Source: an uncultured Acidobacteriota bacterium (GTDB taxonomy: Bacteria; Acidobacteriota; Thermoanaerobaculia; Multivoradales; UBA5704). Taken from it: 64,000 nucleotides of DNA. Positions within the stretch are counted from its first letter, which is position 1. The number at the start of each line of letters is the position of its first letter. The DNA is taken from positions 1,751,836 through 1,815,835 of the forward strand of contig CAWCIU010000008.1 of NCBI GenBank assembly GCA_963795735.1, given 5' to 3'. Position numbers and translations under genes: made by a program. This document shows positions 410-54,132 of this stretch, in pieces. The notes under the pieces are model-generated. The model was not told the DNA's origin, did no database searches, and saw only the letters and a program-made list of their open reading frames with translations.

Positions 410-3400
410 ATGCCCCGTAATGCCTTGGCCCCCGTCGTCTTCCCTCCCGGCTCCACCCTCGGTCCCCTGCTCGAGGAGCTGCGCCTGGACGCCCGGCTCG
501 GCCCGCAGCTCCTCTACTCCACGCACCTGCCCGGCAGCGAGGCGCGGTACGGCGAGCTCGATCCGCCGCTCCCGGAGCCGCTCTCCCGCGCCTTGGGCCG
601 CGGGCTGGGCCATGGAAGCTCGCCGCGCCTGTGGACTCACCAGACGGAGGGGATCGCGGCCGTGCGGCGGGGAGAAAACGTGCTGGTCACCACCCCCACG
701 GCCTCCGGCAAGTCGCTGGTCTTCCAGGTCCCTCCCCTGGAGGAGGCGGTCCGCGGGGGACCGGGGCATGGCCTGTTCCTCTTCCCGCTCAAGGCGCTGG
801 GGCAGGACCAGCGGGGGAAGTTCCTCCGCCTGGCCGCGGAGGCGGGGATCCCGCCGGAGGCCGCCGGGTGCGAGATCTACGACGGCGACACCCCGGCCTC
901 GAAGCGCACCTCGATCCGCAAGAATTTTCCCCGGGTGGTGATCTCCAATCCGGACATGCTCCACCTGGGCGTCCTCGGCCACTGGACGGGGTGGGGGCCG
1001 TTCCTGGCCGACCTGCGCTGGGTGGTGCTCGACGAGCTCCACACCTACCGCGGGATCTTCGGCAGCCACTTCCACCACGTCCTCCAGCGCTTCTTCCGGC
1101 TCTGCCGCTCGGTGGGATCGGACCCGGTGCTGATCGCCTCCTCGGCCACCGCGGCCAACGCCGGGGAGTTCGCCGAGACCCTCACCGGGCGCAAGTTCCA
1201 CTGGATCTCCCAGTCGGGCGCCCCGCGCGAGGACCGCCACCTGCTGCTCTTCCAGCCGGAGGCGAGCCCGTACACCACCGCGCTGCAGCTCTTCGTGCGC
1301 TTCATCAACGCCGGGCTCAAAACGATCGTCTTCACCAAGGCCCGGCGGATCACCGAGCTGCTCTACTCCTGGCTGCGGCGGCAGGAGCCGGCCCTCGCCG
1401 CGCGGGTGGCGAGCTATCGCGCCGGCTTCCTCGCCGAGGAGCGGCGGCGGATCGAGGCCGCCCTCTTCGAGGGGAAGCTCGACGGCGTCATCTCCACCTC
1501 GGCCCTGGAGATGGGGATCGACGTCGGCGGCCTCGACGCCTGCATCCTGGTGGGCTACCCGGGGAGCATGATGGCCACCTGGCAGCGCTCGGGCCGGGTG
1601 GGGCGGGCGGGCCGCGAGTCGATCACCGCCATGGTGGCGATGCCCGACGCCCTCGACCAGTACTTCCTCGATCATCCCGGGCAGTTCCTCGAGCGCCCCT
1701 GCGAGCGGCTGATCGTCGATCCGGTCAACGATCCGGTGTCGCGGGCGCACCTGGTCTGCGCCGCCTCCGAGATGCCGCTCTGCGGCGACGACCGCGCCTA
1801 CCTGGCGCCGCACCAGGCCCGGGTGGAGAAGCTGCTGCGCCAGGGGCACCTGCTCGCCGCCGCCGAGGGGGACGAGATCTTCTCCCTGCGCCGCCGGCCG
1901 CAGCGCCACGTCAACTTGCGGGGGACGGGGGAGACCTTCGCCATCCTCGCCGGCGGCCGGACGATCGGCACGGTGGACGGCGTGCGGGTGCTCCACGAGT
2001 GCCACCCCGGGGCGGTCTACCTCCACGCCGGGCGGCAGTTCCTGGTCGAGGCGCTGGAGCGCGAGGAGCGGCGGGTGCTGGCCGCGGCGGCGGATCTCGA
2101 CTATTTCACCACCCCGCTGACCGAGAAGGAGACCGAGATCCTGGAGGTGCTGGAGGAGAGGAGCGAGGGGCCGCTCCAGGCCTGGCTGGGCCGCCTCAAG
2201 GTCACCGAAAGGGTGGTCGGCTTCGAGCGCAAGCGCATCCACGGTCAGGAGGTGATCGACCAGACGCCGCTCGACCTGCCGCCGGTCGAGTTCGAGACGG
2301 TGGGCCTCTGGTGGGCGGCGCCGCGGGCGGCGGAGGAGACCCTGCGCCGCCGGGGGGAGCACTTCCTGGGCTCCCTCCACGCCTCGGAGCACGCCGGCAT
2401 CTCGCTCTTCCCCATCCTGGCCCTCTGCGACCGCGGCGACATCGGCGGCATCTCCTACCCCCTCCATCCGCAGCTCGGCACCGGCGCCGTCTTCATCTAC
2501 GACGGCCATCCCGGAGGGGTGGGGATCGCCGCCCGCGGCTTCGAGGACCTCGCCGACCTGCTGGGGCGGATCGAGGCGCTGATCGCCGGCTGCCCCTGCG
2601 AGACCGGCTGCCCCTCCTGCGTGCAGTCCCCCAAGTGCGGCAACGGCAACCGGCCGCTCGACAAGCCGGGCGCGGCCCGGGTGCTGCGGCTGCTGCTCGG
2701 GCGGGAGGAGCCGGCGGTGGCGTGGGGGGAGGCGGTGCGGGTGAGTCTGGTGGTGGCGGAGGAGGCGGAGCCTCTCCCGGACCCTCACCCCCTGGCCCCC
2801 TCTCCCGTCCCCTCCCACCCTCCCTCGCCGGGAGAGGGGGAAACGGAAGGCTCTCTCGCAGTCGAGAATCTCCCCGGCCAGCGCCACGCCAGCCTGCGGA
2901 GCGCCCCTGCCACCTCGTTCGAGCCCCTCCAGATCGGGTCGGCTCTCCTGCCGTCGTCTCCATTCCCCCTCGCCCGGGGAGGGAGGGCGGGAGGGGACGG
3001 GAGAGGGGGTCAGGGGGTGAGGGTCCGGGAGGGAGAGCCGCGCACGATCCTCTTCGACCTCGAGACCCTGCGCTCCGCCGCCGACGTGGGGGGCTGGCAC
3101 AAGGCCCACCGCATGGGGATCGCCGTCGGGGTGGTCTGCCATCTGGAGGAGGGGCGCTTCGAGGTATATCCCGAGCTCCGGGTGCGCGACCTGGTGGAGG
3201 CCCTGCGCGGCGCCTCCCTGGTGATCGGCTACAACATCAAGCGCTTCGACTACCTGGTCCTCTCCGGCTACACGGGGGAGGACTTCTCGCGCACCCTGCC
3301 GACGCTCGACCTTCTGGAAGACGTCGCCTCCCGCCTGGGCTTCCGGGTGGGCATGGGCCACCTCGCCCAGGAGACGCTGGGGATCGGGAAGTCCGCCGAC

Positions 3401-4156: not shown

Positions 4157-6232
4157 ATGCGGAGCCCCCGCCCGTCCCTCGTTTCCGCGATTTCCGTGAT
4201 CCTCCTCGGCCTGTCCCTGGCCGCCTGCCAGACGGCGCCGCCGAAGCCTCCGGCTTCACCGGCCTCGCCGGTATCGCGCGCCGCCGCCGGGCCGGGGGAG
4301 ATCCGCTACGGCTTTCTCTTCTCCGGCAATCCGGCGGGCTCCGCCTCCTCCCGCGTCGAGCCGGACGGCACCCGGGTGGAGACCTTTGAGTTCAACGATC
4401 GCGGGCGGGGCTCCAACACCACCAGCCGCTACCGGCTCGACGACAGGGGGCTGCCGGCGTCCGTCAAGACGACCGGCGTCGACTACTGGAAGACCCCGGT
4501 TTCGGAGCGGTTCGAGCGGACGGGTAGCCATGCCTCCTGGAAGAGCGCGGCGGAGAAGGGGGAGCGCGACGTCCGCGAGCCGGCCTTCTTCCTCAGCCTG
4601 AACGGTCCCCCCCAGGAGAGCGCGCTGCTAGCCAAGGCGCTGCTCGCGGCGCCGGGCCACCGCCTCCCGCTCCTGCCGACCGGGGAGGCCCGGCTCGAGG
4701 AGGTCACCTCGCTGCCGGTCCAGGCCGCCGGGCGCTCCCAGACCGTCCACCTCTACTCGCTCGCCGGCCTCGGCTTCACCCCCGGCTATCTCTGGCTCGA
4801 CGAGAGCCGGGATCTCTTCGCCAGCGTCAGCGGCTGGGGAGCCCTCTTCCGCGAGGGCTGGGTGGACGCCGTCCCGCAGCTCACCCACGCCCAGGATACG
4901 GCCGAGAAGGCGCGGTTCAAGGAGGCCGCCGCCCGGCTCGCCCATCACCCCCAGGGGGGCGGGCTCGCCATCCGTCACGCCCGGCTCTTCGATCCGGCGA
5001 CCGGGGCGTACCGGCCGGACACCACCGTGCTCGTTGCCGGCAACCGCATCCAGGCCGTCGGCCCGGACGCCGAGGTGACCGTGCCCCCCGGCGTCGAGGT
5101 GGTGGACGCCCGCGGCAAGGCCCTTCTGCCGGGCCTGTGGGACATGCACGTCCACCTCGGCGAGGAGCAGGGCCTCTTCAACCTCGCCTCCGGCGTGACC
5201 AGCGTGCGCGATCTCGCCAACGACGTCGACCAGCTCATCGACATGCGCCGGCGCTGGGATTCGGGCGAGGGGATCGGCCCCCGCGTGCTGATGGCCGGCT
5301 TCCTCGACGGCCCCGGCCCCTACGCGGGTCCCACCAAGGCGCTGGTCTCCACCGAGGCGCAGGCTCTGGAGTGGGTGGACCGCTACGCCAAGCTCGGCTA
5401 CGTGCAGATCAAGCTCTACAGCTCGCTCGATCCCAAGCTGGTGCCGCCAATCGTCAAGCGCGCCCACGAGCTGGGGCTGCGGGTCTCCGGCCACATCCCC
5501 AACGGGATGAGCGCCGAGCAGGCGGTGCGCGCGGGGTACGACGAGATCCAGCACGTGAACTTCCTGGTCCTCAACTTCCTCGACCCGAAGATCGACACCC
5601 GCACCCCGGCCCGCTTCTCCGAGGTGGCCAGGCACGCCGCCGAGCTGGACCTCCACTCCGAGCGGGTGAAGGATTTCATCGCCCTGCTCAAGGCGCGCGG
5701 CACCGTTTCCGATCCCACCCTCAACGCCTTCGAGGGGATGTTCAAGGCCCAACCCGGCGAGGTGGACCCCAGCCTCGCCGCGGTGGCGGACCGCCTGCCC
5801 CCCCAGGTGCAGCGCGGCCTCTACAATGCCGGCCTCAACCCGCCGGCCGACCAGGTGCAGCGCTACCGCGACTCCTACCGCGCGATGCAGAACCTGGTGA
5901 AGTCCCTCTACGACGCCGGGGTGACGATCGTCGCCGGCACCGATGCCATGGCGGGCTTCACCCTCCACCGCGAGCTGGAGCTCTACGTGGATTCGGGGAT
6001 TCCCGCCCCCGAGGCGCTGCGCATCGCCACCCTGGGCGCGGCGCGGGTCATGAAGCGGGACCGGGACCTCGGCTCGGTCGCCCCGGGCAAGCTGGCCGAC
6101 CTGATCCTGGTGGACGGCGATCCCGCGGCGCGCATCTCGGACATCCGCCGCGTGGTCCTCACCGTCAAGGACGGCGTGGTCTACGACCCCGCGGCCCTCT
6201 GGCGCGAGGTCGGGGTCAAACCGGTGGAATGA
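4157..6232 (+). CDS. amidohydrolase family protein (secreted/lipoprotein, N-terminal extra domain)
   Basis: Signal/lipobox LGLSLAAC. Metal-binding motif PGLWDMHVHL. The C-terminus AGTDA...LILVDGDP is typical of the amidohydrolase superfamily. Confidence 0.8.
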   Translation: MRSPRPSLVSAISVILLGLSLAACQTAPPKPPASPASPVSRAAAGPGEIRYGFLFSGNPAGSASSRVEPDGTRVETFEFNDRGRGSNTTSRYRLDDRGLPASVKTTGVDYWKTPVSERFERTGSHASWKSAAEKGERDVREPAFFLSLNGPPQESALLAKALLAAPGHRLPLLPTGEARLEEVTSLPVQAAGRSQTVHLYSLAGLGFTPGYLWLDESRDLFASVSGWGALFREGWVDAVPQLTHAQDTAEKARFKEAAARLAHHPQGGGLAIRHARLFDPATGAYRPDTTVLVAGNRIQAVGPDAEVTVPPGVEVVDARGKALLPGLWDMHVHLGEEQGLFNLASGVTSVRDLANDVDQLIDMRRRWDSGEGIGPRVLMAGFLDGPGPYAGPTKALVSTEAQALEWVDRYAKLGYVQIKLYSSLDPKLVPPIVKRAHELGLRVSGHIPNGMSAEQAVRAGYDEIQHVNFLVLNFLDPKIDTRTPARFSEVARHAAELDLHSERVKDFIALLKARGTVSDPTLNAFEGMFKAQPGEVDPSLAAVADRLPPQVQRGLYNAGLNPPADQVQRYRDSYRAMQNLVKSLYDAGVTIVAGTDAMAGFTLHRELELYVDSGIPAPEALRIATLGAARVMKRDRDLGSVAPGKLADLILVDGDPAARISDIRRVVLTVKDGVVYDPAALWREVGVKPVE

Positions 6233-6321: not shown

Positions 6322-8349
6322 ATGCGGAGAGCGTGTCTTTTCACGCTGGGGCTCCTGGTCTGTTCCGGGCTCGGGGCCGCGGCGGCTGCGGCATCGCCGC
6401 CCCTGTTCCGGCCGGGCGAGGAGCTTCGCTATACCGTCTTCTTCGGCAATCTGCGGCCGGTGGGGCTGGCGACCTTTCTCGTCGAGCCGGCCGGCGACAG
6501 CGTCCTCACCCTGAAGGTGAGCGACCGCGGGCGCGGTGAGAGCTTCAACTCGCGGCTCCGCCTCGACGCCGACGGCATTCCGCTGCGGGAGCACCTCACG
6601 GGCGTCGACTACTGGCAGAACCCGGTCGACGAACGGCTCGAGATCGCCGGCGGCCGGGCCACCTGGAGCGGCGGGCCGGAGAAGGGCGAGAAGAAGATCG
6701 CTCATCCCGCCTTCTACGTCACCCGCGGCGGCCTCAGCCTGGAGGCCGGCCTGCTGGCGATGGCCCTGCTGCACAACCCCCACCATCGCCTGCCGCTGCT
6801 GCCGGAAGGGGAGGGGCGCCTCGAGAAGGTCGGCGCGGCGCGGATCGCGGGCGGGGGAAAGGCGCGCGACCTCTCGCTCTTCCTCCTCACCGGCCTCGCC
6901 TCGCCGCTCTACGTCTGGATGGACGGCGACGGCGTCTTCTTCGGCCGCTACGACGGTTTCATCACCTCCGTCCCGCAGGGGTGGGAGGAGGCGGCGCCGG
7001 CGATGATCCAGGCGCAGACCCGGGCCGTGGCGTCGCGGTGGAAGGCCGTCGCGGCAAAGCTCGCCCACCGCCCGTCCGGAGCGCTGGCGGTGACCGGGGC
7101 CCGGCTGTTCGACCCGGAAGCCGGCACGGTGACGCCCGGCGTCACCGTCGTCGTCTCCGGCAACCGCATCCAGGCCGTCGGCCGGGACGGCGAGGTCCCG
7201 GTGCCCACCGGGGCCAAGGTGGTCGAGGCCCACGGCCGCATGCTGCTGCCGGGCCTCTGGGACATGCACCAGCACCTCACCGACAACGACGGCCTCCTCG
7301 ACCTGGCCGCCGGCGTGACCACCGGCCGTGACATGGCCAACGACATGGACTACCTGCTCGACCTCAAGCGCAGGTGGGACTCCGGCGAGGCCCTGGGGCC
7401 GCGGGTGGTGCTGGCCGGCGTCATCGACGGTCCGGGCCTGTACGCCAGCCCCACCAAGATGCTGGTAGAGACCGAGGAGAAGGCGCGCGCCACGGTGGAC
7501 CGCTACGCCGGGATGGGCTACGCGCAGATCAAGATCTACAGCTCGCTCGACCCCAAGCTGGTCCCCGCGATCGTCGCCGAGGCCCACCAGCGCGGCCTGC
7601 GGGTCTCCGGCCACATCCCGTACGGGATGACGGCCGCGGACGCGGTCCGCGACGGGTTCGACGAGCTCCAGCACGTCAACTTCCTCTTCCTCAACTTCCT
7701 CCCCGGGGTCGACACCCGCACGATGGCCCGGATGACCGCCGTCGCCGAGCACGCCGCGGAGATCGATCTCGCCTCCGAGCCGGTGCGGGCCTTCCTGCGG
7801 CTGCTCAAGGAGCGGCACACGGTGGTGGACCCCACCCTCAATATCTACGAGGACCTGTTCACCGCCCGCCCGGAGGAGGTGCGCCCGAGCTTGGCGCCGG
7901 TGGGGGAGCGGCTGCCCTACCAGTTGCGCCGCACCCTGCTCGGGGGGAGTCTGGCGATTCCGCCGGGCCAGGAGCAGCGCTACCGCGACTCCTACCGCGC
8001 CTGCGTCGCCATGGTGCGCCTCCTGCACGACGAGGGCATCCCGATCGTCGCCGGCACCGACTCCGCCGCCGGCTTCGACCTCCACCGCGAGCTCGAGCTC
8101 TACGTCGCCGCGGGCCTGCCGGCCCCCGAGGTGCTGCGCCTCGCCACCCTGGGAGCCGCCCGCATCATGAAGCTCGACCGCGACCTCGGCACCATCGCCC
8201 CCGGCAAGCTCGCCGACCTGATCCTGGTGGACGGCGATCCCACCAGGAGCATCAGCGACATCCGGCGCGTGGTCCTCACCATCAAGGACGGCGTGATCTA
8301 CGACCCCGCGGAGCTGTACCGGTCGGTCGGGGTGAAGCCGGCGGTGTGA
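6322..8349 (+). CDS. amidohydrolase family protein, tandem paralog of the upstream gene
   Basis: Same architecture and motifs as 4157..6232 (PGLWDMHQHL, VAGTDSAAGF, LILVDGDPTRS). A signal peptide is present. Confidence 0.8.
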   Translation: MRRACLFTLGLLVCSGLGAAAAAASPPLFRPGEELRYTVFFGNLRPVGLATFLVEPAGDSVLTLKVSDRGRGESFNSRLRLDADGIPLREHLTGVDYWQNPVDERLEIAGGRATWSGGPEKGEKKIAHPAFYVTRGGLSLEAGLLAMALLHNPHHRLPLLPEGEGRLEKVGAARIAGGGKARDLSLFLLTGLASPLYVWMDGDGVFFGRYDGFITSVPQGWEEAAPAMIQAQTRAVASRWKAVAAKLAHRPSGALAVTGARLFDPEAGTVTPGVTVVVSGNRIQAVGRDGEVPVPTGAKVVEAHGRMLLPGLWDMHQHLTDNDGLLDLAAGVTTGRDMANDMDYLLDLKRRWDSGEALGPRVVLAGVIDGPGLYASPTKMLVETEEKARATVDRYAGMGYAQIKIYSSLDPKLVPAIVAEAHQRGLRVSGHIPYGMTAADAVRDGFDELQHVNFLFLNFLPGVDTRTMARMTAVAEHAAEIDLASEPVRAFLRLLKERHTVVDPTLNIYEDLFTARPEEVRPSLAPVGERLPYQLRRTLLGGSLAIPPGQEQRYRDSYRACVAMVRLLHDEGIPIVAGTDSAAGFDLHRELELYVAAGLPAPEVLRLATLGAARIMKLDRDLGTIAPGKLADLILVDGDPTRSISDIRRVVLTIKDGVIYDPAELYRSVGVKPAV

Positions 8350-21833: not shown

Positions 21834-21856
21834 AAGTTTCAGCCGCGTTGGTCCCG

Positions 21857-21918
21857 TAGGGTGCGCTGCGCGCACCTTCAACGGCGGTGCCGGTGCGCGC
21901 AGCGCACCCTACGGCGTT
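21857..21918 (+). repeat. 62-bp palindromic element (21-bp perfect stem gtagggtgcgctgcgcgcacc / ggtgcgcgcagcgcaccctac), possible terminator/REP
   Basis: Read directly from the sequence. Lies immediately downstream of fdhD. A second copy is at ~23526-23590. Confidence 0.6.
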
Positions 21919-23496: not shown

Positions 23497-23676
23497 CCCT
23501 CACCGGGAGAGGGGAAACGAACCGGCGGAGCCCGTAGGGTGCGCTGTGCGCACCTTTGAGGCCGTCCATGGTGCGCGCAGCGCACCCTACATCGAACATG
23601 GAGCGCAGCGTCCCCCTCCTCTCCCGGTGCGGGAGGGCGGGAGGGGACGGGAGAGGAGGGCCGGGGAGGTGAGGGC
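23497..23676. repeat. MITE-like element: truncated forward unit (23497-23520) and reverse unit (~23611-23676) bracketing a second copy of the 62-bp palindrome (~23526-23590)
   Basis: Sequence identity of the palindrome to 21857-21918, with one U-G-compatible change. The flanks match the dispersed ccctcacc...gggagagg family. Confidence 0.6.
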
Positions 23677-24258
23677 CTACTTCGAAGCCGTCTGCGTCTG
23701 CGCCCGCATCGCGAACGGCTGGCCGCCGTGCAGGTAGCGGTAGGGGTTGACCGCCTCGCCGGAGGGGGCGTAGATGCCGTAGTGCAGGTGGGGAGAGGAG
23801 ACGGCCGCGTTGCCCGAGTTGCCCACGTAGCCGATGATCTCGCCGGCCTCCACCCAGTCGCCGACCGCCTGCGGACCGTAGTCCTCGAGGTGGGCGTAGT
23901 AGAGACGGTAGCCGCCCGGGCCGGTGATCGTCACCACCTGGCCGCCCAGCCCCCGCATCCCCTTGTTCTCGACGAACCCCTCGGTGGCGCTGCGGATCGG
24001 CGTGTTGCGCGGGGCGAAGATGTCGATCCCCTTGTGGTGCCGCACGCCGCCGTCCCGCGCGAAGCCCCAGGTGTTCTGGAGCTGGGAGGAGGTCACGCCG
24101 TCCACCGGGATCGGCAGCGTGCCCGGCAGCCCCTGCTGGAGCAGGGTGGTGTAGCGCGTGTTGTAGCGCACGGCCGCTTCGCGGCAGCCCCCGAGCGAGA
24201 GCGAGAAGAGAACGAGAAGGGCGACGAGACCGAGGGACTGGCGACGAACCATCTCCAC
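23677..24258 (-). CDS. M23-family metallopeptidase (peptidoglycan DD-endopeptidase-like)
   Basis: HKGIDIFAP...HLHYGIYAP motifs. Signal peptide. Confidence 0.8.
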   Translation of the reverse strand: MEMVRRQSLGLVALLVLFSLSLGGCREAAVRYNTRYTTLLQQGLPGTLPIPVDGVTSSQLQNTWGFARDGGVRHHKGIDIFAPRNTPIRSATEGFVENKGMRGLGGQVVTITGPGGYRLYYAHLEDYGPQAVGDWVEAGEIIGYVGNSGNAAVSSPHLHYGIYAPSGEAVNPYRYLHGGQPFAMRAQTQTASK

Positions 24259-26571: not shown

Positions 26572-29500
26572 TCAGGGCGAGTCTCTGCCGAGGACCTCCC
26601 TCCAGGCGCTCTGGATGAGCCTCCTCGCCCCGGGACCCTCGCAGCAGATGGAGGCTTCGTAGCGTTGATAGCGATCCCCTTCATCCCGGACCGCCGACAG
26701 CCAGTTGAACGAGCCTTCCACGATCCAGTGGTCATCGACCGCGAGGGTCTTGCTGTGCATCCGGTTGGAGGCCACGACTTCGGCGCCGGCTTGCCGGAGC
26801 CCCTCCGCAGCCTTCAACGCCGAGGCTTTACGCACACCCTGGTTCAGGTCCACCGAATACACCACGCAGACCTGGACTCCCCGTGACCGGGCAGCTCCGA
26901 CCGCCTCCGGGATGCCGTCCGCTTCGAGAGCTCTCTCCGTGAGGAAGGGAGAGACGACGAGGACCCGGTCGGTGCTCCGGGTGAGGGCGCGGCTCAACAT
27001 CTCCCGATGACCCGCCAGGGTCGAGATGCGGTTCGTATCCTCCATGCCGACCAGATGCTGGGCGGCTTCCACGTCGGTGATCTCATGGTCCGGAGATTCG
27101 AACAGGAACCGGCCCAGCAGGCCGGAAGGCAGATGGGGCTTGTTCCTGTCGAACAGGCGGAGATCTCCGAAGACCAGGAACGAGTCCTTGGCCCTGGAGG
27201 CGGCGACGTTCAGCAGGTTCGGGCCCGCGTCGAAGAACAGGCGGTGAGGAATCTTCTGGGTCGAGGCGAGCGAATAGACCGGCGAGAAGAGCACGACCGG
27301 GCTCTCCGCTCCCTGAAAGGTATGGACGGTTCCCGCTTTGATTGCGGGCAGCCCCTGGGCCTTGAACGCGCCGGCCAGCACCCATCTCTGGGCGGCGAAC
27401 GGAGTGATGACGGCCACGATCCTCTCGATCGGGGCTTCATAGTGCCGTTCAAGATCGTCGCGATGGCGAGCGAGCCAGTCAGCGATCGCTCGGGCCTCTC
27501 CCGGGTTGCGGCGGCTTCCGGAAGAAATCTCTTCGGGCGAAGTGATATGGGCCCAGCCGAGAGGAGGCAGAATCCTCTCCTGCTTCGACGGCCTGAGAGG
27601 CCGGAGACGGTTCTTGTAGACCAGCTCGTTGCAGTACCGGATGATTTCCGGCACGCAGCGCCGGTGCTCGCCGAGGAACAGTCCCCGATCGTCCTCGCGG
27701 GTGACGGCGGTGGCGCGGCGGGCCATCAACATCAGGCTGCCCCGCGAAGCCCGGTGGGCGATCGCGTCCTCGCCGCCGTCCAGATCGGTCTCGAGACCGG
27801 CTTTGCGCAGATTCGCCGTGTCGATGGACGGACCGATCCCCCAGACCGGCTCGATCTGATGGAGATCCCCCACCACCAGTCCCCGCTTGGCCAGGGAGAA
27901 GGCGGCCGCTCCCACCTCCGGCGTCACCTGGCCGGCCTCGTCGACGATCAGGAGATCCAGGAAGTCGAACATCGGCACGTTCCGTTCCCGTCCTGGATCG
28001 AAGGAATCGAAGACCTTCGGCGACCGGTGGATCGTCGCGACGAGGCAAGGAGTGAGCTTGGCGAACCGCCGGAAGCGCTCTTCGCAGGCGGAACGGCTCC
28101 GGCGGTCCAATCTCTGGTCCGAGGCGAGCAGGCGCTCCATCTCCAGCAGCCATCGGCCCTCCCAGTACCGGCCCGCGAGCAGAAACAGCCGGTGGCGCGG
28201 TCCGCAGTCCAGCAGGTCCAGAATCAATTCGGGTCTCTCCAGGGCCTCTTTGCCGAGAGCCTGGAAATCCGATCGGTTGTCCTGGAGCTCCTCGACACGG
28301 GCGGCGAAGCGCGCCTCCAGCTCCTGCCACGGGCGGAGCTCGGGGATCTGGGATTTCAACGCATCCAGGGTTTTCCGCAGCGCATCGAGGAGGCTCCGCG
28401 CCCCGTCCGGACCGTGCACGGGCGGCGGCTCACGGCGGCGGCGAAGGAACGGCATCGAGAGATGGCGGTCCCGGTGCCGGCGGACCGGCGGCAGGAAGGC
28501 CAGCAGGTTCGTCCAGAGGGGGATGGCGCCCTCCGCCGCCAGGACCTCATCGTACAGGGCCGCCTCCTCGGCCATCCGAGCTTCCAGGGATTCGCGATCC
28601 TGGTCGATGCGCCGCCGGGCCTCCTCGGTCCCGAGGCAGCCATACCGTGTCCGCCATGCCTGGACCTCGCGAGCCTCTCCGATGCAAGCCGCGAGCTCGC
28701 CCTGGACCGCGACCAGCCGCTCCTGAAGGTGACGCACGATCTCCTTCACGGAGCCGCAGCGTTCCCGCGGCAGAACGGTCCGCGCCCGGGTGACGAAAAA
28801 GGCTTCGGCGCGCTCGACGTAGGCCCGGTTCTCCATCGACTCCGGCAGCCCCCGCCAGGGATTGCCCGGGAAGGCCTGTTGATATTTCGCCTCCTTGAAC
28901 TTGTCGGCGGAAGGGAGGTGCAGCCCATAGGCGCCGAGGTCCGGCAGCCAGCGCTCGGCCAAGGGGTCGCTCCCCTCGCAGGCGGCCGCGGCGAAGCTCT
29001 CCAGGATGTTGGTCACCGCCTGGTTGTTGGTGGAGCAGGCGAAGATGACGGGAGGCTCTCGATCGCCCAGGGCCGCTTCGACCCAGAGGGAGGCCACGAC
29101 GCTTTGCAAGAGCGTGGTCTTGCCGGTGCCGGGCGGACCGTTGACCGCCAGAATCCGGCCTGCGGCAAGCGGCAGCGCGCAATGGATCGCCTGCCTTTGC
29201 GAGGGGCTCAAGGGGAAGGATCTTCCCATCTGCCCGCAGTGTCTCGTCGCCAACGTCTCACGGCCCAGGTCGTGGGCCGAGGGGGCCGCCGCGGGCTCCT
29301 CGGCCGCTGCGAAGCTCCCAAGGAGTCGTGGAGTGGAGTCCCGGCCCAGCACCTCGTCGTAGAGCTCGATGAGGGGCCTGCCCACTCCTTTCTCGTCCTT
29401 CCAGAGCAGGACGACTCCCTGTTGATCCAGCACCCTGAAACCGTCCAGGACCAGGGCGGACGGTACGCAGTGCGCGACGGCCTGAAGCATCTGGCTCGCA

Positions 29501-30018
29501 TACCGGCGCACGCTCGTCCAATCCGCGGCTTCCGGCGGGGCCGTCTCCGTCAGGAACCGGTCGAAATCCGCCAGCGATCCAACGACAGGGCCATCGCCGG
29601 CCATCGGCTCCAGGCACTCCCGGCTCATCCACGGAAGCGCCTGGGGAGACCCTTGCAGGGAGCCGTCGGGAAGGACCAGGGCGGGTATCCAGAGCGGGAA
29701 GTATCTTTTTTTGGCGTCGCCCTTCTGAACGGTTCCGTGCTGAAAATCGCGTGCGATCGTCATGGGAGCGATCAGGATCGGCACGTAGCTCGGCGCGGCG
29801 GGCCTTTCCTCCTGGACGGTCTGCGCCCCGGCGCGAGCGCCCCGCTCGCGTTCCGCGCACCAGAAGATCTTCTGGGTCAGGGCTTGCGGGAGATTGCCGC
29901 CCACGATCTCCAACGGATGAAGAAGAAACGCGCCGTCTTCGCTCACGACGGGCGAGCGCAGGTCCGCGTCGGCAAGGCTGTTGCGCCAGTACCGGATCAG
30001 CGCCCGGGTCCGATCCAT
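26572..30018 (-). CDS. Superfamily-1 (Upf1/DNA2-like, COG1112) helicase fused to C-terminal PLD-family HKD nuclease; Mokosh type II (MkoC)-like candidate defence protein
   Basis: Walker A GPPGTGKTT, LIVDEAGQ, VVGDLHQIEP, TVHTFQGAE, VAASRAKDSFLVFGD. C-terminal HSKTLAVDDHWIVEGSFNWLS HKD motif. Confidence 0.7.
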   Translation of the reverse strand: MDRTRALIRYWRNSLADADLRSPVVSEDGAFLLHPLEIVGGNLPQALTQKIFWCAERERGARAGAQTVQEERPAAPSYVPILIAPMTIARDFQHGTVQKGDAKKRYFPLWIPALVLPDGSLQGSPQALPWMSRECLEPMAGDGPVVGSLADFDRFLTETAPPEAADWTSVRRYASQMLQAVAHCVPSALVLDGFRVLDQQGVVLLWKDEKGVGRPLIELYDEVLGRDSTPRLLGSFAAAEEPAAAPSAHDLGRETLATRHCGQMGRSFPLSPSQRQAIHCALPLAAGRILAVNGPPGTGKTTLLQSVVASLWVEAALGDREPPVIFACSTNNQAVTNILESFAAAACEGSDPLAERWLPDLGAYGLHLPSADKFKEAKYQQAFPGNPWRGLPESMENRAYVERAEAFFVTRARTVLPRERCGSVKEIVRHLQERLVAVQGELAACIGEAREVQAWRTRYGCLGTEEARRRIDQDRESLEARMAEEAALYDEVLAAEGAIPLWTNLLAFLPPVRRHRDRHLSMPFLRRRREPPPVHGPDGARSLLDALRKTLDALKSQIPELRPWQELEARFAARVEELQDNRSDFQALGKEALERPELILDLLDCGPRHRLFLLAGRYWEGRWLLEMERLLASDQRLDRRSRSACEERFRRFAKLTPCLVATIHRSPKVFDSFDPGRERNVPMFDFLDLLIVDEAGQVTPEVGAAAFSLAKRGLVVGDLHQIEPVWGIGPSIDTANLRKAGLETDLDGGEDAIAHRASRGSLMLMARRATAVTREDDRGLFLGEHRRCVPEIIRYCNELVYKNRLRPLRPSKQERILPPLGWAHITSPEEISSGSRRNPGEARAIADWLARHRDDLERHYEAPIERIVAVITPFAAQRWVLAGAFKAQGLPAIKAGTVHTFQGAESPVVLFSPVYSLASTQKIPHRLFFDAGPNLLNVAASRAKDSFLVFGDLRLFDRNKPHLPSGLLGRFLFESPDHEITDVEAAQHLVGMEDTNRISTLAGHREMLSRALTRSTDRVLVVSPFLTERALEADGIPEAVGAARSRGVQVCVVYSVDLNQGVRKASALKAAEGLRQAGAEVVASNRMHSKTLAVDDHWIVEGSFNWLSAVRDEGDRYQRYEASICCEGPGARRLIQSAWREVLGRDSP

Positions 30019-31179: not shown

Positions 31180-31288
31180 GGGGCGGTTATCCTATCGTGC
31201 TGGTCCCGCGAAGCTCCCGATCCCGGAGATCGGACGTCGTTTCCGATCCTGGAGATCCGGTCTTCGGAACGGTGCCGGCGCCGCCGGG

Positions 31289-31355
31289 CCCCTCACCTCC
31301 CCGGCCCTCCTCTCCCACCTCCCCCCCTTCCGCCGGGAGAGGAGGGAGTGGTTAG
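31289..31355 (+). repeat. MITE/RPE-like repeat unit, forward copy (ccctcacctccccggccctcctctcccacctcccccccttccgccgggagaggagggagtggttag)
   Basis: Seen directly. Contains the internal hairpin ctcctctccc/gggagaggag. Confidence 0.8.
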
Positions 31356-31358
31356 TCT

Positions 31359-31748
31359 CTAGGAGGAATCGCGGTCGTGGTAAAGGCAGCCCAGGGCGTC
31401 GAGGAGGGCCGCGAGGTCATTCTGGACCTGGTCGTTGGTGAAGCGAAGGACCCGGTAGCCGAGAGCCTCGAGGTTCGCATCCCGATTGACGTCATGCCTG
31501 ATCTGGCGTTCTTCTGTATGAATGCCGCCGTCGATCTCCAGGACAAGCCTCATCTCGTGGCAGAGGAAGTCGGCGACGTAGGGTCCCACGGGAGCCTGCC
31601 GGCGGAATTTCAGGCCGAGGAACCGGCGGTCCCGCAGGTGGTCCCAAAGCATCTCCTCGGCCTGGGTGGAGGCGCGCCGGAGCCCCTTCGCGCGAAGCAC
31701 GGCACCAGGATTGGAAACCCGCACCGCAAAAGTATCCCACAAGCGCAA
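31359..31748 (-). CDS. DUF559 endonuclease-domain protein (Vsr-like fold), cargo of a MITE-like inverted-repeat element
   Basis: MLWDHLRDRRFLGLKFRRQAPVGPYVADFLCHEMRLVLEIDGGIH...LEALGYRVLRFTNDQV matches the DUF559 family. The gene ends 4 bp from repeat A and starts (TTG/GTG) ~7 bp from repeat B. Confidence 0.8.
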   Translation of the reverse strand: MRLWDTFAVRVSNPGAVLRAKGLRRASTQAEEMLWDHLRDRRFLGLKFRRQAPVGPYVADFLCHEMRLVLEIDGGIHTEERQIRHDVNRDANLEALGYRVLRFTNDQVQNDLAALLDALGCLYHDRDSS

Positions 31749-31754
31749 TACCCA

Positions 31755-31821
31755 CTAACCACTCCCTCCTCTCCCGGCGGAAGGGGGGGAGGTGGGAGAG
31801 GAGGGCCGGGGAGGTGAGGGG
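31755..31821 (-). repeat. MITE/RPE-like repeat unit, reverse copy, inverted partner of 31289-31355
   Basis: Reverse complement of the forward unit. Confidence 0.8.
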
Positions 31822-32039
31822 CCCGGCGGCACCGGCGTCGCTCCGGCTTCCTCCCATCTCGGGATCGGAGAAGACCGGCCGGAGAAGACGCGGTCGGAGA
31901 AGACGTGGCCGAGAACACCCGGCCGGAGAAGACCCGGCCAGAGAACCCGGCCGGAGAACACCTGGGAGGTTTCGCGAGCAAAGGCTGATCCTGCCGGCGT
32001 CAGCCCTGCCGGAACGGGGACCGTGCCGGCCGCTCCGGG

Positions 32040-32106
32040 CCCCTCACTCCCCCAGCCCCTCTCTCCCACCTCCCCCCCTTCCGCCGGGAGAGAGGGGAGT
32101 GGTTAG
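32040..32106 (+). repeat. MITE/RPE-like repeat unit, solo forward copy
   Basis: ccctcactcccccagcccctctctcccacctccccccttccgccgggagagaggggagtggttag, just downstream of the ABC permease gene. Confidence 0.75.
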
Positions 32107-32134
32107 AGGGGACTCGAGAAGCGAGGGGCCTCCC

Positions 32135-35778: not shown

Positions 35779-35848
35779 CGGGGGTGGGGCGGCGTTGGGA
35801 CCGGCCGGGCGGGATCGTAGCCAAACGGCGGCGGGGGGGCAAGGGCGG

Positions 35849-36016
35849 CCCTCATCACCCCGGCCCTCTTCTCCCACCTCCCCCCCTTCCGCCGGGAGAA
35901 GAGGGAGTGGTTAGCTCAAGAAAAGAAAAAGAAAGAAGAAGCGGTTGGTTTTAGCCCTCTCTCTCCCGGCGGTCGGGGGGGAGGCTGGGAGAGAGAGGGT
36001 TGGGAGAGTGAGGGCC
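35849..36016. repeat. Empty MITE/RPE-like element: forward unit 35849-35914 and reverse unit ~35955-36016 separated by ~40 bp A-rich spacer
   Basis: Both units match the family consensus. The spacer is aaaagaaaaagaaagaagaagcggttggttttag. Confidence 0.75.
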
Positions 36017-36114
36017 GCCCCGGAGGGGCGCCGGCGACGTTGCCTGTAAGACGTTACCAGTAAGACGTGCCTGTACGACGTGCCTGGAAGAGGCCTGCCT
36101 TCCCAGGCCCCCCC

Positions 36115-38063: not shown

Positions 38064-38165
38064 CGATCGTTTCCCGCCGGCGGTCCCCCAGGGAGGGGGC
38101 CAGCGCCGCGAAGCTTATCCGACCGGAAGACGCCGGCGCCGTGTCCGCCGGCGCGCCTTCCGCCA

Positions 38166-38360
38166 AGGTTGGCGCAGAGCGCGTGAAGCTTGGCGCGGAG
38201 TGCGCGAAGCTTGGCGGGGAACGCGTGAAGGTTCGCGCGGAAGGCGTGAAGCTTGGCGCAGAGCACGCGAAGCTTGGCGCAGACCGCGTGAAGCTTGACG
38301 TGGAGCGCGTGAAGCTTGGCGCAGAGCGCGTGAAGGTTGGCGCGCTCTGCGCCAAAGCGA
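38166..38360. repeat. Tandem array of ~9 x 21-bp units (consensus ttGGCGCAGAGCGCGTGAAGC, each containing AAGCTT), ending in a perfect palindrome ggcgcgctctgcgcc
   Basis: Seen directly: ggcgcagagcgcgtgaagctt ggcgcggagtgcgcgaagctt ggcggggaacgcgtgaaggtt ... Period is 21 bp, i.e. two helical turns. Confidence 0.8.
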
Positions 38361-51229: not shown

Positions 51230-51760
51230 TTCCATTCCAGCGGTGCCCCCCTGGATCTCCGTCATCGCCCTCTCTGCGCGCGCCATTGCCCTCCAGGCGT
51301 GCGCCTTCACCAACCAGGGGGACCTCATTGCCCTCTGGTGGTGCGTCATCGCCCTCTGGTTTTTCCTTCCGGCCCCCTGGTTTTGCGGGGTTGCCCACTG
51401 GAAATTCGACCCGGCCCTCTGGGTTGGCGGCTCCGCCCTTTAGTTTGATGGCTCCGCCCTCTGGTTTGACGGCGTGCCCCCTTCAGTCCGCGATACGTAA
51501 ACCCAGAGGGCCGCATCGCAAATCCAAGGGGCCGGCTCGAATTTCCAGGGGGCAGAGCCGCCGTCTCGTGGGGCGGAGCCGTAACCTCAGGGGGCCGATA
51601 CCGCAAACCAGGGGGCCGGGCTGGAAAAGCAAGGGGCGCGGCCGGAAATCCAATGGGCGCAGCCGGAAAACCAGGGGGCACGGCGGCCGCTCGGGTTCGC
51701 GCTGCGGGATTTCCAGGGGGCGCACCGGTCCTGGGGTCCCGGAGGAGGCCGCGCGGCCGC
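51230..51760. repeat. ~530-bp composite repeat: left array of ~11 x 21-bp units (cGGCnnnGCCCTCTGGTTTnA) and right array of ~11 units in inverted orientation (TnAAACCAGGGGGCnnnGCCg), centre near 51490
   Basis: Seen directly: ...cggctccgccctctggtttga... | ...aaacccagagggccg, aaatccaaggggccgg, atttccagggggcag, aaaccagggggccggg, gaaaaccagggggcacgg... 21-bp periodicity on both arms. Confidence 0.75.
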
Positions 51761-53549: not shown

Positions 53550-53641
53550 GGCGGGGATCGTAGCAGGGGAGGGTGGGGGCGGGCGACCGATACCCCGATG
53601 CAGGACGCTTCATGATCCCGGACGGCTCCGTGCCGCCGCGG

Positions 53642-53796
53642 CCCTCATCACCCCGGCCCTCTTCTCCCAGCCTCCCCCCCTTCCGCCGGGAGAAGGGGGA
53701 GTGGTTAGTCTGAAAAAAGACCAGAGCTTTTTGAGCCCCCTCTCTCCCGGCGGCGGGGGGGAGGTGGGAGAGAGGGGGTTGGGGGAGTGAGGGGCC
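53642..53796. repeat. Empty MITE/RPE-like element: forward unit 53642-53708, reverse unit ~53736-53796, 27-bp spacer
   Basis: ccctcatcaccccggccctcttctcccagcctcccccccttccgccgggagaagggggagtggttag ... ccccctctctcccggcggcggggggggaggtgggagagagggggttgggggagtgaggggcc. Confidence 0.75.
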
Positions 53797-54132
53797 TCAC
53801 GCCGTCAGGTCGTCGACCGCCGCCTCGGGGGCGTTCTTCTTGACCGATTCGAGCCCCTTCTCCATGGATTCGGGGGAGGAGTAGGTCTCGCTCTGGCCGA
53901 TCACCTGGCCGTTGTAGGCCTTGAGAACGAAGTAGGCTTCGCCGTTCTTGGCCGTCTTGCGCTCGTAGCGCTCGGCGATCGGGGCGCTGCGCTTGACCGA
54001 TTCGATGCCGCCCAGGGCGCCGCGCTTCTCGGTATAGAGCTCGCTCGCCAGGATCACCTCTCCATTGTCCGCCTTGAGATGGAACAGGTACTGCTTGTCG
54101 GTGGACATCTTCAGCTCGAACTTTCCAGCCAT
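53797..54132 (-). CDS. YegP/DUF1508 (UPF0339) family protein
   Basis: Two tandem ~50-aa repeats: KFELKMSTDKQYLFHLKADNGEVILASELYTEKRGALGGIESVK and AYFVLKAYNGQVIGQSETYSSPESMEKGLESVK. Confidence 0.75.
   Translation of the reverse strand: MAGKFELKMSTDKQYLFHLKADNGEVILASELYTEKRGALGGIESVKRSAPIAERYERKTAKNGEAYFVLKAYNGQVIGQSETYSSPESMEKGLESVKKNAPEAAVDDLTA

Follow-up and report, generated by a model that had tools for sequence, protein, structure and literature searches.

A 64-kb stretch of DNA from an uncultured Acidobacteriota bacterium (64,000 nucleotides, here called the window) contains a small gene of the DUF559 family that lies nested between two inverted copies of a structured intergenic repeat, whereas further copies of the same kind of repeat occur elsewhere in the window without such a gene. 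Judged by its best homologues, the organism belongs with acidobacteria of the Thermoanaerobaculia type. The gene encodes a predicted Vsr-fold nuclease that resembles YcjD of Escherichia coli, and the repeat units are a long-loop, long-arm acidobacterial variant of the repeats known as BoxC, PIT or 'triplex motif' (TM). The association between gene and repeat was shown to be specific and to extend across phyla. Since the nuclease gene is nested in an inverted pair while gene-less singlets and doublets are found elsewhere, the element is best read as a partnership similar to that of repetitive extragenic palindromic (REP) sequences and RAYT proteins, in which a Vsr-fold nuclease would be paired with triplex repeats of the BoxC type, a reading that we consider somewhat more probable than not, but by no means secure. 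BoxC is said to have been known as a repeat family since the work of Bergler in 1992, and Hoyne reportedly dealt with the same class in 2000. To our knowledge, these repeats have been catalogued since the 1990s without a protein partner or a mode of spread, and we know of essentially no function that has been assigned to DUF559, a very large family to which ycjD of strain K-12 belongs. The cross-phylum coupling joins these two questions in a single system, which is accessible in E. coli K-12.

The nuclease gene and its inverted repeats

The DUF559 open reading frame (ORF) occupies 31359..31748 on the minus strand, is read as 129 amino acids (aa) from a TTG start at 31748, and is the only DUF559 gene in the 64-kb window. 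It is enclosed by inverted arms at 31265-31356 and 31754-31845, each 92 nt long and 96% complementary to each other, so that the ORF is separated from the arms by 2 nt on the side of its stop codon and by 5 nt on the side of the TTG. An earlier note on this DNA, which had described a DUF559 gene bracketed by an inverted repeat pair, was thus right about the arrangement; its spacing of 4 to 7 bp came close to the measured values, and its limits of 31289-31821 indicate the right element but cut off some 24 nt of each arm. The non-ATG start that it proposed also holds, with the reservation that the exact position is uncertain. The TTG codon is not kept in a copy with 94% identity (locus L082), and a GTG codon at 31700 (V17), which is conserved both in this copy and in a further relative (L083), is the alternative; as a start it would leave a 5' leader of about 54 nt.

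The predicted product is a small PD-(D/E)XK nuclease with a Vsr fold. It matches Pfam DUF559 (PF04480) with an E-value of 2.2e-35 (121 bits, gathering cut-off 20.6), the only other Pfam match being a weak one to MTES_1575, and NCBIfam PRK09767 with an E-value of 2.7e-22, which is below the equivalog cut-off. The AlphaFold (AF2) model has a pLDDT of 83.5, and a Foldseek search with it retrieved the DUF559 structure 3HRL (E 4.7e-8; phmmer E 8.6e-20), the catalytic domain of the homing endonuclease I-Bth0305I (3R3P, E 7e-4) and then PvuRts1I/AbaSI. Across 26-27 homologues, E. coli YcjD among them, residues D60, E71, D73, H77 and D86 and several arginines do not vary. The gene evolves under purifying selection, with a ratio of non-synonymous to synonymous substitution rates (dN/dS) of 0.12-0.19 among three close copies. 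A role in defence was also considered and is unsupported by the PADLOC models, of which DpdF alone gave a weak local match to the protein (E 1.4e-4).

The repeat units have a constant order of parts. On the G-rich strand, a tail (CTAACCACT) precedes a polypyrimidine arm of 12-13 nt, a loop of 17-23 nt and the complementary polypurine arm, after which follow a linker of 2-3 nt and a third G-rich block that ends with TGAGGG. Unit A (31265..31356, G-rich strand minus) consists on the plus strand of the complement of the third block (31290-31301), the linker, the pyrimidine arm (31305-31316), an 18-nt loop, the purine arm (31335-31346) and the tail AGTGGTTAG (31347-31355). In unit B (31754..31845, G-rich strand plus) the corresponding parts are the tail at 31755-31763, the pyrimidine arm at 31764-31775, the loop, the purine arm at 31794-31805, the linker and the third block GGGAGGTGAGGG at 31809-31820. 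In all, about 11 units are present in the 64 kb, all of them outside long ORFs and including three inverted doublets, and a 28-mer taken from the repeat gave five matches in the window against none in shuffled sequences.

The third block is a mirror image of the purine arm. In a set of 112 asymmetric arms collected from many taxa, a mirror arrangement gave the better fit in 90 and a direct arrangement in seven, and after removal of duplicates the figures were 35 and 6; the mirror identity between arm and block was 0.88, as compared to 0.76 +/- 0.006 for random re-pairing. The mirror relation was therefore preferred, and a direct repeat of the arm or an alternative Watson-Crick partner was rejected as a description of the block. 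With the allowed triads (G.G-C, A.A-T, T.A-T), eight window units with four different arm sequences score from 11/11 to 13/13, units A and B both reaching 12/12, whereas only 8 of 20,000 random windows of 40 nt attained 12/12. Since the third block mirrors the purine arm, the G-rich strand is predicted to be capable of forming a hairpin together with a purine-motif triple helix. A G-quadruplex was rejected as a conserved feature because four runs of three Gs are missing from variants such as GGGAGAAGG..GGATGAGGG. A shared GGTTGGTTTT tag, seen beside the E. coli repeat TM#1 and window unit D2, was not enriched elsewhere, and a scan of 30.5-36.5 kb against Rfam (E<=1) returned only spurious miRNA-like matches on the hairpins.

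The published consensus for the E. coli repeats, TM_ECO (CCCTCNCCC N3-6 GGGNGAGGG N3 GGGNGAGGG, with loops of 1-6 nt), has no match in the window. With a first loop of 17-23 nt and arms of 12-13 nt, the window units are therefore a variant and not TM_ECO proper, from which they also differ in the C-rich nature of the loop and in a GGTTAG tail. They share with the BoxC / PIT / TM class the succession of pyrimidine arm, loop, purine arm, linker and G-rich third block, with fully valid triads in the window, as well as an intergenic and multi-copy occurrence, often as inverted pairs, and an association with local deletions. According to Holder et al. 2015 (PMC4666352), the class counts 23 copies in E. 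coli K-12, among them five inverted pairs, and has members in over 260 genomes. Circular dichroism and nuclear magnetic resonance showed that E. coli TM oligonucleotides form a stable intrastrand triplex as single strands (PMC4666352). The same paper mentions no associated protein or endonuclease and states that the motif is unlinked to mobile elements (PMC4666352).

Coupling of gene and repeat across phyla and in E. coli

The idea that other DUF559 genes would be flanked by repeats as well was borne out in a sample of 80 fetched loci encoding relatives of the window protein, from Acidobacteriota, Alpha- and Betaproteobacteria, Nitrospirota and other groups. Flanking inverted repeats well above local controls were detected in about 45 of the 77 testable loci, and their arms have in common a motif CCCTCTCCC-loop-GGGAGAGGG plus GGGTGAGGG, in which changes compensate each other. 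The 494 kb of DUF559 loci contain 178 polypyrimidine/polypurine hairpins, where some 1-3 are expected. The density of units falls from 4.9/kb at up to 150 nt from the gene to 1.4/kb at 150-300 nt and to about 0.06/kb farther away; in 64 of the 80 loci there is a unit no more than 200 nt away, and both sides are occupied in 37. For comparison, 408 kb of sequence surrounding an unrelated gene in related organisms, which contained no DUF559, had a density of 0.024 units/kb. A sample taken in the reverse direction, consisting of 120 viral-collection contigs that were picked for the repeat alone (1.1 Mb, 270 units), contained four DUF559 genes, all four of which are bracketed by units. The ORFs often run into the downstream unit, which gives rise to odd '...SPLSRPGGREDGREGPGE' C-termini. 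We found no paper that links DUF559 or YcjD with BoxC, PIT or TM repeats, although coverage of the literature was incomplete and an earlier description may exist.

The coupling can be followed in E. coli, where the DUF559 gene of K-12, ycjD, has an intact BoxC 168 nt downstream, identical to the published TM #9 (1,351,204-1,351,239; table in PMC4666352). The chance expectation for one of 18 BoxC loci to be located that near to ycjD is about 0.003. A degenerate hairpin extends over the stop codon of the K-12 gene, and about 45 nt of its 3' end are duplicated between the gene and BoxC #9 (locus L081, 3800-3960); both features suggest a past unit insertion or rearrangement at the end of the gene. 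Of 5,426 complete E. coli genomes, 3,377 have the gene, and in all others it is replaced by eefRABCD, so that the interval between fabI and sapF (L081, L284) has two alternative occupants, ycjD with BoxC #9 or the eefRABCD efflux operon.

Repeat numbers follow the presence of the gene, a correlation that the earlier note had called for; taken together with the flanking of other DUF559 genes, it leaves the proposal of that note unrefuted by the note's own test. In an even-step sample of complete E. coli genomes, the 37 with ycjD have a median of 20 BoxC-like places (range 16-33) and the 22 without it a median of 7.5 (range 2-20; one-sided Mann-Whitney p 1.4e-9), with just 2-5 BoxC-like copies in B2/ST131 genomes, which have no ycjD. 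The spacer between hrpB and mrcB also illustrates how the E. coli repeats vary, since three alleles of the doublet TM #1/#2 were found there (L285/L286/L287). In K-12 the site is filled and the doublet begins 2 nt past the hrpB stop codon; a second strain has the empty site without a duplication, and a third has a collapsed allele with one hybrid hairpin, the remnant of a deletion between both hairpins.

Mobility of the composite and alternative explanations

In the window, the gene and its repeats are located between genes for an ABC-2 permease and a GT2 glycosyltransferase (GT). In a relative with 84% (permease) and 86% (GT) aa identity, these two genes abut as TAGATG (L084, 4040-4050), and in a metagenome relative with about 85% aa identity they are 120 nt apart and separated by an unrelated GGGAC-rich palindrome (L085, 4047-4170). 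Since the junction is free of units in both, the whole segment from permease stop to GT start in the window (31180..32134) must be regarded as an insertion. Other relatives carry different inserts at this place, which therefore appears to be an insertion hot spot: one has a 1.3-kb cassette of two ORFs without Pfam hits (L087, 3605-4889), and another a DUF559 composite together with a homologue of one cassette ORF (L083, 5100-5673). The latter locus is syntenic with the window and carries its DUF559 gene in the same position (85% nt identity), with two different unit types.

A second genomic context was found in L082, where the whole composite of extension, unit, gene and unit is 94% identical to that of the window and is located just past the stop codon with which an unrelated gene, for an acyl-ligase, ends. 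The extension is a 75-nt outer segment that adjoins unit A in the window (31190..31264), carries CCGATCC..GGAGATC..GGTCTTCGG motifs and can be aligned to the segment that borders the L082 composite on its left. Relative to the gene, it is placed 5' in L082 but 3' in the window, so the core between the arms has been inverted in one of the two. This fits a published set of predicted inversion targets with flanking inverted repeats, in which DUF559 shows a 14-fold enrichment (PMC9881135), and a confirmed partnership would explain why the family appears among such false or true 'programmed inversion' targets. The suggestion of a minimal mobile unit is thus supported by the insertion relative to other genomes and by the second context, but not in the sense of a classical transposon, which is unlikely given that no target-site duplication (TSD) and no conserved target were found. 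Among the scanned loci there was a single TSD-like case, a Nitrobacter metagenome-assembled genome (L056, ~1600-2110) in which the 15-nt direct repeat GAGATCGCGCGATGA flanks the DUF559 composite and duplicates the overlapping stop/start (ATGA) of two host genes; hits of 10 nt represented neighbouring units.

The gene persists vertically under purifying selection, the composite is relocated occasionally and repeat numbers follow the gene, all of which fits a REP/RAYT-like picture. As in REP/RAYT (REPIN-RAYT) systems, a small nuclease gene, usually single-copy, is found between inverted structured repeats that are also dispersed as intergenic singlets and doublets which fold into long hairpins. 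The differences are in the parts: the enzyme is a PD-(D/E)XK nuclease of the Vsr fold instead of an HUH/Y1 protein (TnpA_REP), of which no Pfam match was obtained with the window protein, and the repeats, instead of GTAG-tagged palindromes, are hairpins of polypurine and polypyrimidine arms to which a third block is added as a mirror. According to the proposed mechanism, the DUF559 nuclease would be the dedicated partner of the repeat family, the gene-bearing inverted pair would be a 'master' copy, and solo units and empty doublets would be non-autonomous copies. Upon strand separation the nuclease would recognise the folded unit or doublet and nick or cut there. Through repair or replication restart, copies of units, and at times of the doublet with the gene, might then reach other intergenic positions, for the most part directly behind a stop codon, and the gene could also be flipped when the inverted arms recombine. 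The gene is accordingly better seen as the likely driver than as the 'cargo' that the earlier note had made of it. The comparison made there with IS200/IS605 holds as an analogy only, because the enzyme is not an HUH protein. Like IS200/IS605 elements with their palindrome-associated transposable elements (PATEs), and like miniature inverted-repeat transposable elements (MITEs), this is a minimal element with structured ends and gene-less derivatives that would be mobilised in trans, and IS200/IS605 also leaves no TSD; unlike them, it has no HUH or DDE transposase, no conserved target tetranucleotide, and complex triplex-type ends. With classical transposons and MITEs it has inverted repeats in common, but not a TSD of fixed length.

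The wider proposal that DUF559/YcjD proteins are structure-specific nucleases for hairpin-plus-triplex DNA, that they form a second, independent REP/RAYT-like system in at least four to five phyla, and that YcjD is the enzyme of BoxC, is more tentative, and we would put its chances at slightly less than even. If it is true, DUF559/YcjD would constitute a new class of enzymes that spread or maintain genomic repeats; on confirmation, a nuclease fold unrelated to that of REP/RAYT would join the known lifestyle of repeat plus domesticated nuclease, and intrastrand triplex DNA in bacteria would gain a biological reader.

Several observations weigh against a partnership of this kind. Binding or cleavage of the repeats by the protein, and their spread or maintenance as a result, are inferred. 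The correlation in E. coli is confounded by phylogroup, as groups D and E without ycjD retain 13-20 copies, and a triplex was not detected in E. coli by in vivo dimethyl sulphate footprinting (PMC4666352). There are 16 loci among the 80 that have no unit, and the orientation of the units depends on the lineage, with hairpins toward the gene in Acidobacteria and boxes toward the gene in most Proteobacteria; the rule that the gene always lies in a doublet of lineage-typical orientation was borne out only in part. No recurrent TSD was found in 39 loci with flanking arms or in the filled and empty alleles of E. coli, and neither a conserved target nor a stop-codon rule applies to the outer end of the units, as a stop codon is present within a few nt in 15 of 127 units and there is no consensus. 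The composites of the window and of L082 stem from different metagenomes and so do not document two copies in one genome. Finally, there is a link to cytosine methylation in the case of VsrA of Caulobacter, the sole DUF559 protein that has been examined in living cells.

This last point is of importance for the possibility that the window protein is a housekeeping repair nuclease of the Vsr type, acting on T:G mismatches or structured DNA, as proposed for VsrA, and not on the repeats, which would be passengers or local terminators or attenuators that keep the level of a toxic nuclease low. VsrA, which carries DUF559, causes DNA damage and an SOS response when the distant ScmA methylase is missing. 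Such proteins therefore do cut DNA in cells, which supports a repair-type role as well, and the Vsr fold with its conserved catalytic residues, purifying selection, vertical inheritance at this site in L083, the lack of a promoter-like site inside the element and mostly co-oriented neighbours are also compatible with it. We nevertheless regard it as unlikely. No methyltransferase, and thus no linked cytosine-5 methyltransferase as in Vsr systems, was found among the neighbours of the gene, and very short patch repair leaves the repeat flanks unexplained. The presence on both sides, in several phyla, of triplex-type repeats and not just any hairpin, at about 80-200-fold enrichment, would also have to be accounted for, as would the joint movement of gene and repeat and the BoxC numbers that follow ycjD. 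A free-standing homing endonuclease is another candidate, and we give it a small chance that is somewhat better than that of the repair nuclease. Such an enzyme would cut empty doublets, and repair of the double-strand break on the template of a filled doublet, by homology of the units of about 90 nt, would copy the gene alone, the repeats being spread otherwise. The gene lies exactly inside a doublet, the window contains empty doublets of the same unit, a missing TSD is then expected, both orientations of the gene with respect to the extension are found, and the second-best fold match is an EDxHD homing endonuclease, I-Bth0305I. This enzyme has the same Vsr-like catalytic fold and conserved acidic and His residues and is likewise encoded by a selfish element, but it resides in a group I intron of phage recA and has an added DNA-binding region and a unique coding target, whereas the window protein, of some 113-129 aa, is free-standing, nested in repeats and without such an extra domain. 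Moreover, the relatives' allele of the window site (TAGATG) has no doublet, so that units and gene together reached a unit-free site, and with one DUF559 gene per ~10 units in the 64 kb and one per 23 in E. coli, doublets are rarely filled.

It is also conceivable, but improbable, that the arms serve as an invertible switch by which a host recombinase or homologous recombination flips the DUF559 gene for phase variation. The 96% identity of the arms, the opposite positions of the extension in the window and L082, and the enrichment of DUF559 among predicted programmed-inversion targets (PMC9881135) would agree with this; however, there is no invertase nearby and no promoter-like site outside the arms to which flipping could connect the gene, and neither the dispersed solo units and doublets nor the triplex-type third block would be explained. 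Coincidence, in the sense that intergenic repeats and small horizontally acquired genes pile up in permissive spacers, has the permease-GT hot spot with its different inserts in its favour. It can hardly produce an 80-200-fold local enrichment of units, inverted on both sides, in many phyla and in two independent samples, in addition to the adjacency in E. coli, and is effectively refuted by the density profile, the DUF559-free control and the reverse sample, so that its probability is close to negligible.

Other repeats and neighbouring genes in the window

The empty repeat copies mentioned in the earlier note do exist. Doublet D (35825..36030) consists of units facing each other over a 40-nt A/G-rich spacer, with 12/12 and 13/13 triads, and doublet E (53619..53800) has a 27-nt spacer and an outer end that touches a stop codon. 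In folding calculations, in which only hairpins were modelled, doublet D as a single strand gave one long hairpin of -66 kcal/mol (z -8.8), whereas single units folded no better than shuffled sequences (z about -0.7 to -1.0), so that the doublets alone stand out. Unit C (32017..32110, minus strand, 12/12 triads) is a solo unit with a second arm type (CCCCTCTCTCCC / GGGAGAGAGGGG) and an 18-nt loop like that of unit A; it is missing from the syntenic L083. A second subfamily, with a 23-nt loop GTCCCCTCCCACCCTCCCTCGCC, is represented by the inverted pair F (2774..3031), the arms of which are separated by 120 nt, and by the solo unit G (23605..23680, plus strand) immediately past a stop codon. Repeats of a separate family, GTAG-tagged classical REP-like palindromes of 60 nt starting with CCGTAGGGTGCGC, are present at 21853-21912 and 23531-23590, the latter at 25 nt from unit G.

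Short AAGAC-rich tandem arrays occur just outside units. The first is a 15-nt repeat, CGGAGAAGACCCGGC, in 6.7 copies between units B and C (31866..31962), which is missing from L083 too, and the second a 13-nt repeat in 4.1 copies (36036-36091). Similar motifs flank the L082 composite (L082, 5466-5530). These arrays might be protein-binding sites. A scan of the element for promoters and terminators yielded nothing informative.

The permease and glycosyltransferase genes that border the inserted segment are on the same strand as the DUF559 gene. Directly downstream of the latter of these two, on the minus strand (26572-30018), follows a gene for a 1148-aa protein with helicase and phospholipase D (PLD) parts, which is a full-length match to MkoC of the type II Mokosh anti-phage defence system (PADLOC E=0, 1033 bits). 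Farther away, the window contains an array of the 21-nt repeat AAGCTTGGCGCAGAGCGCGTG in 8.5 copies that also has inverted-repeat character (38165-38343), inverted and tandem repeats of 21 nt (GCCCTCTGGTTT / AAACCAGGGGGC) that are clustered at 51330-51684, and a tandem duplication of about 2.1 kb of coding sequence, in which 4472-6204 and 6598-8321 are 73-81% identical.

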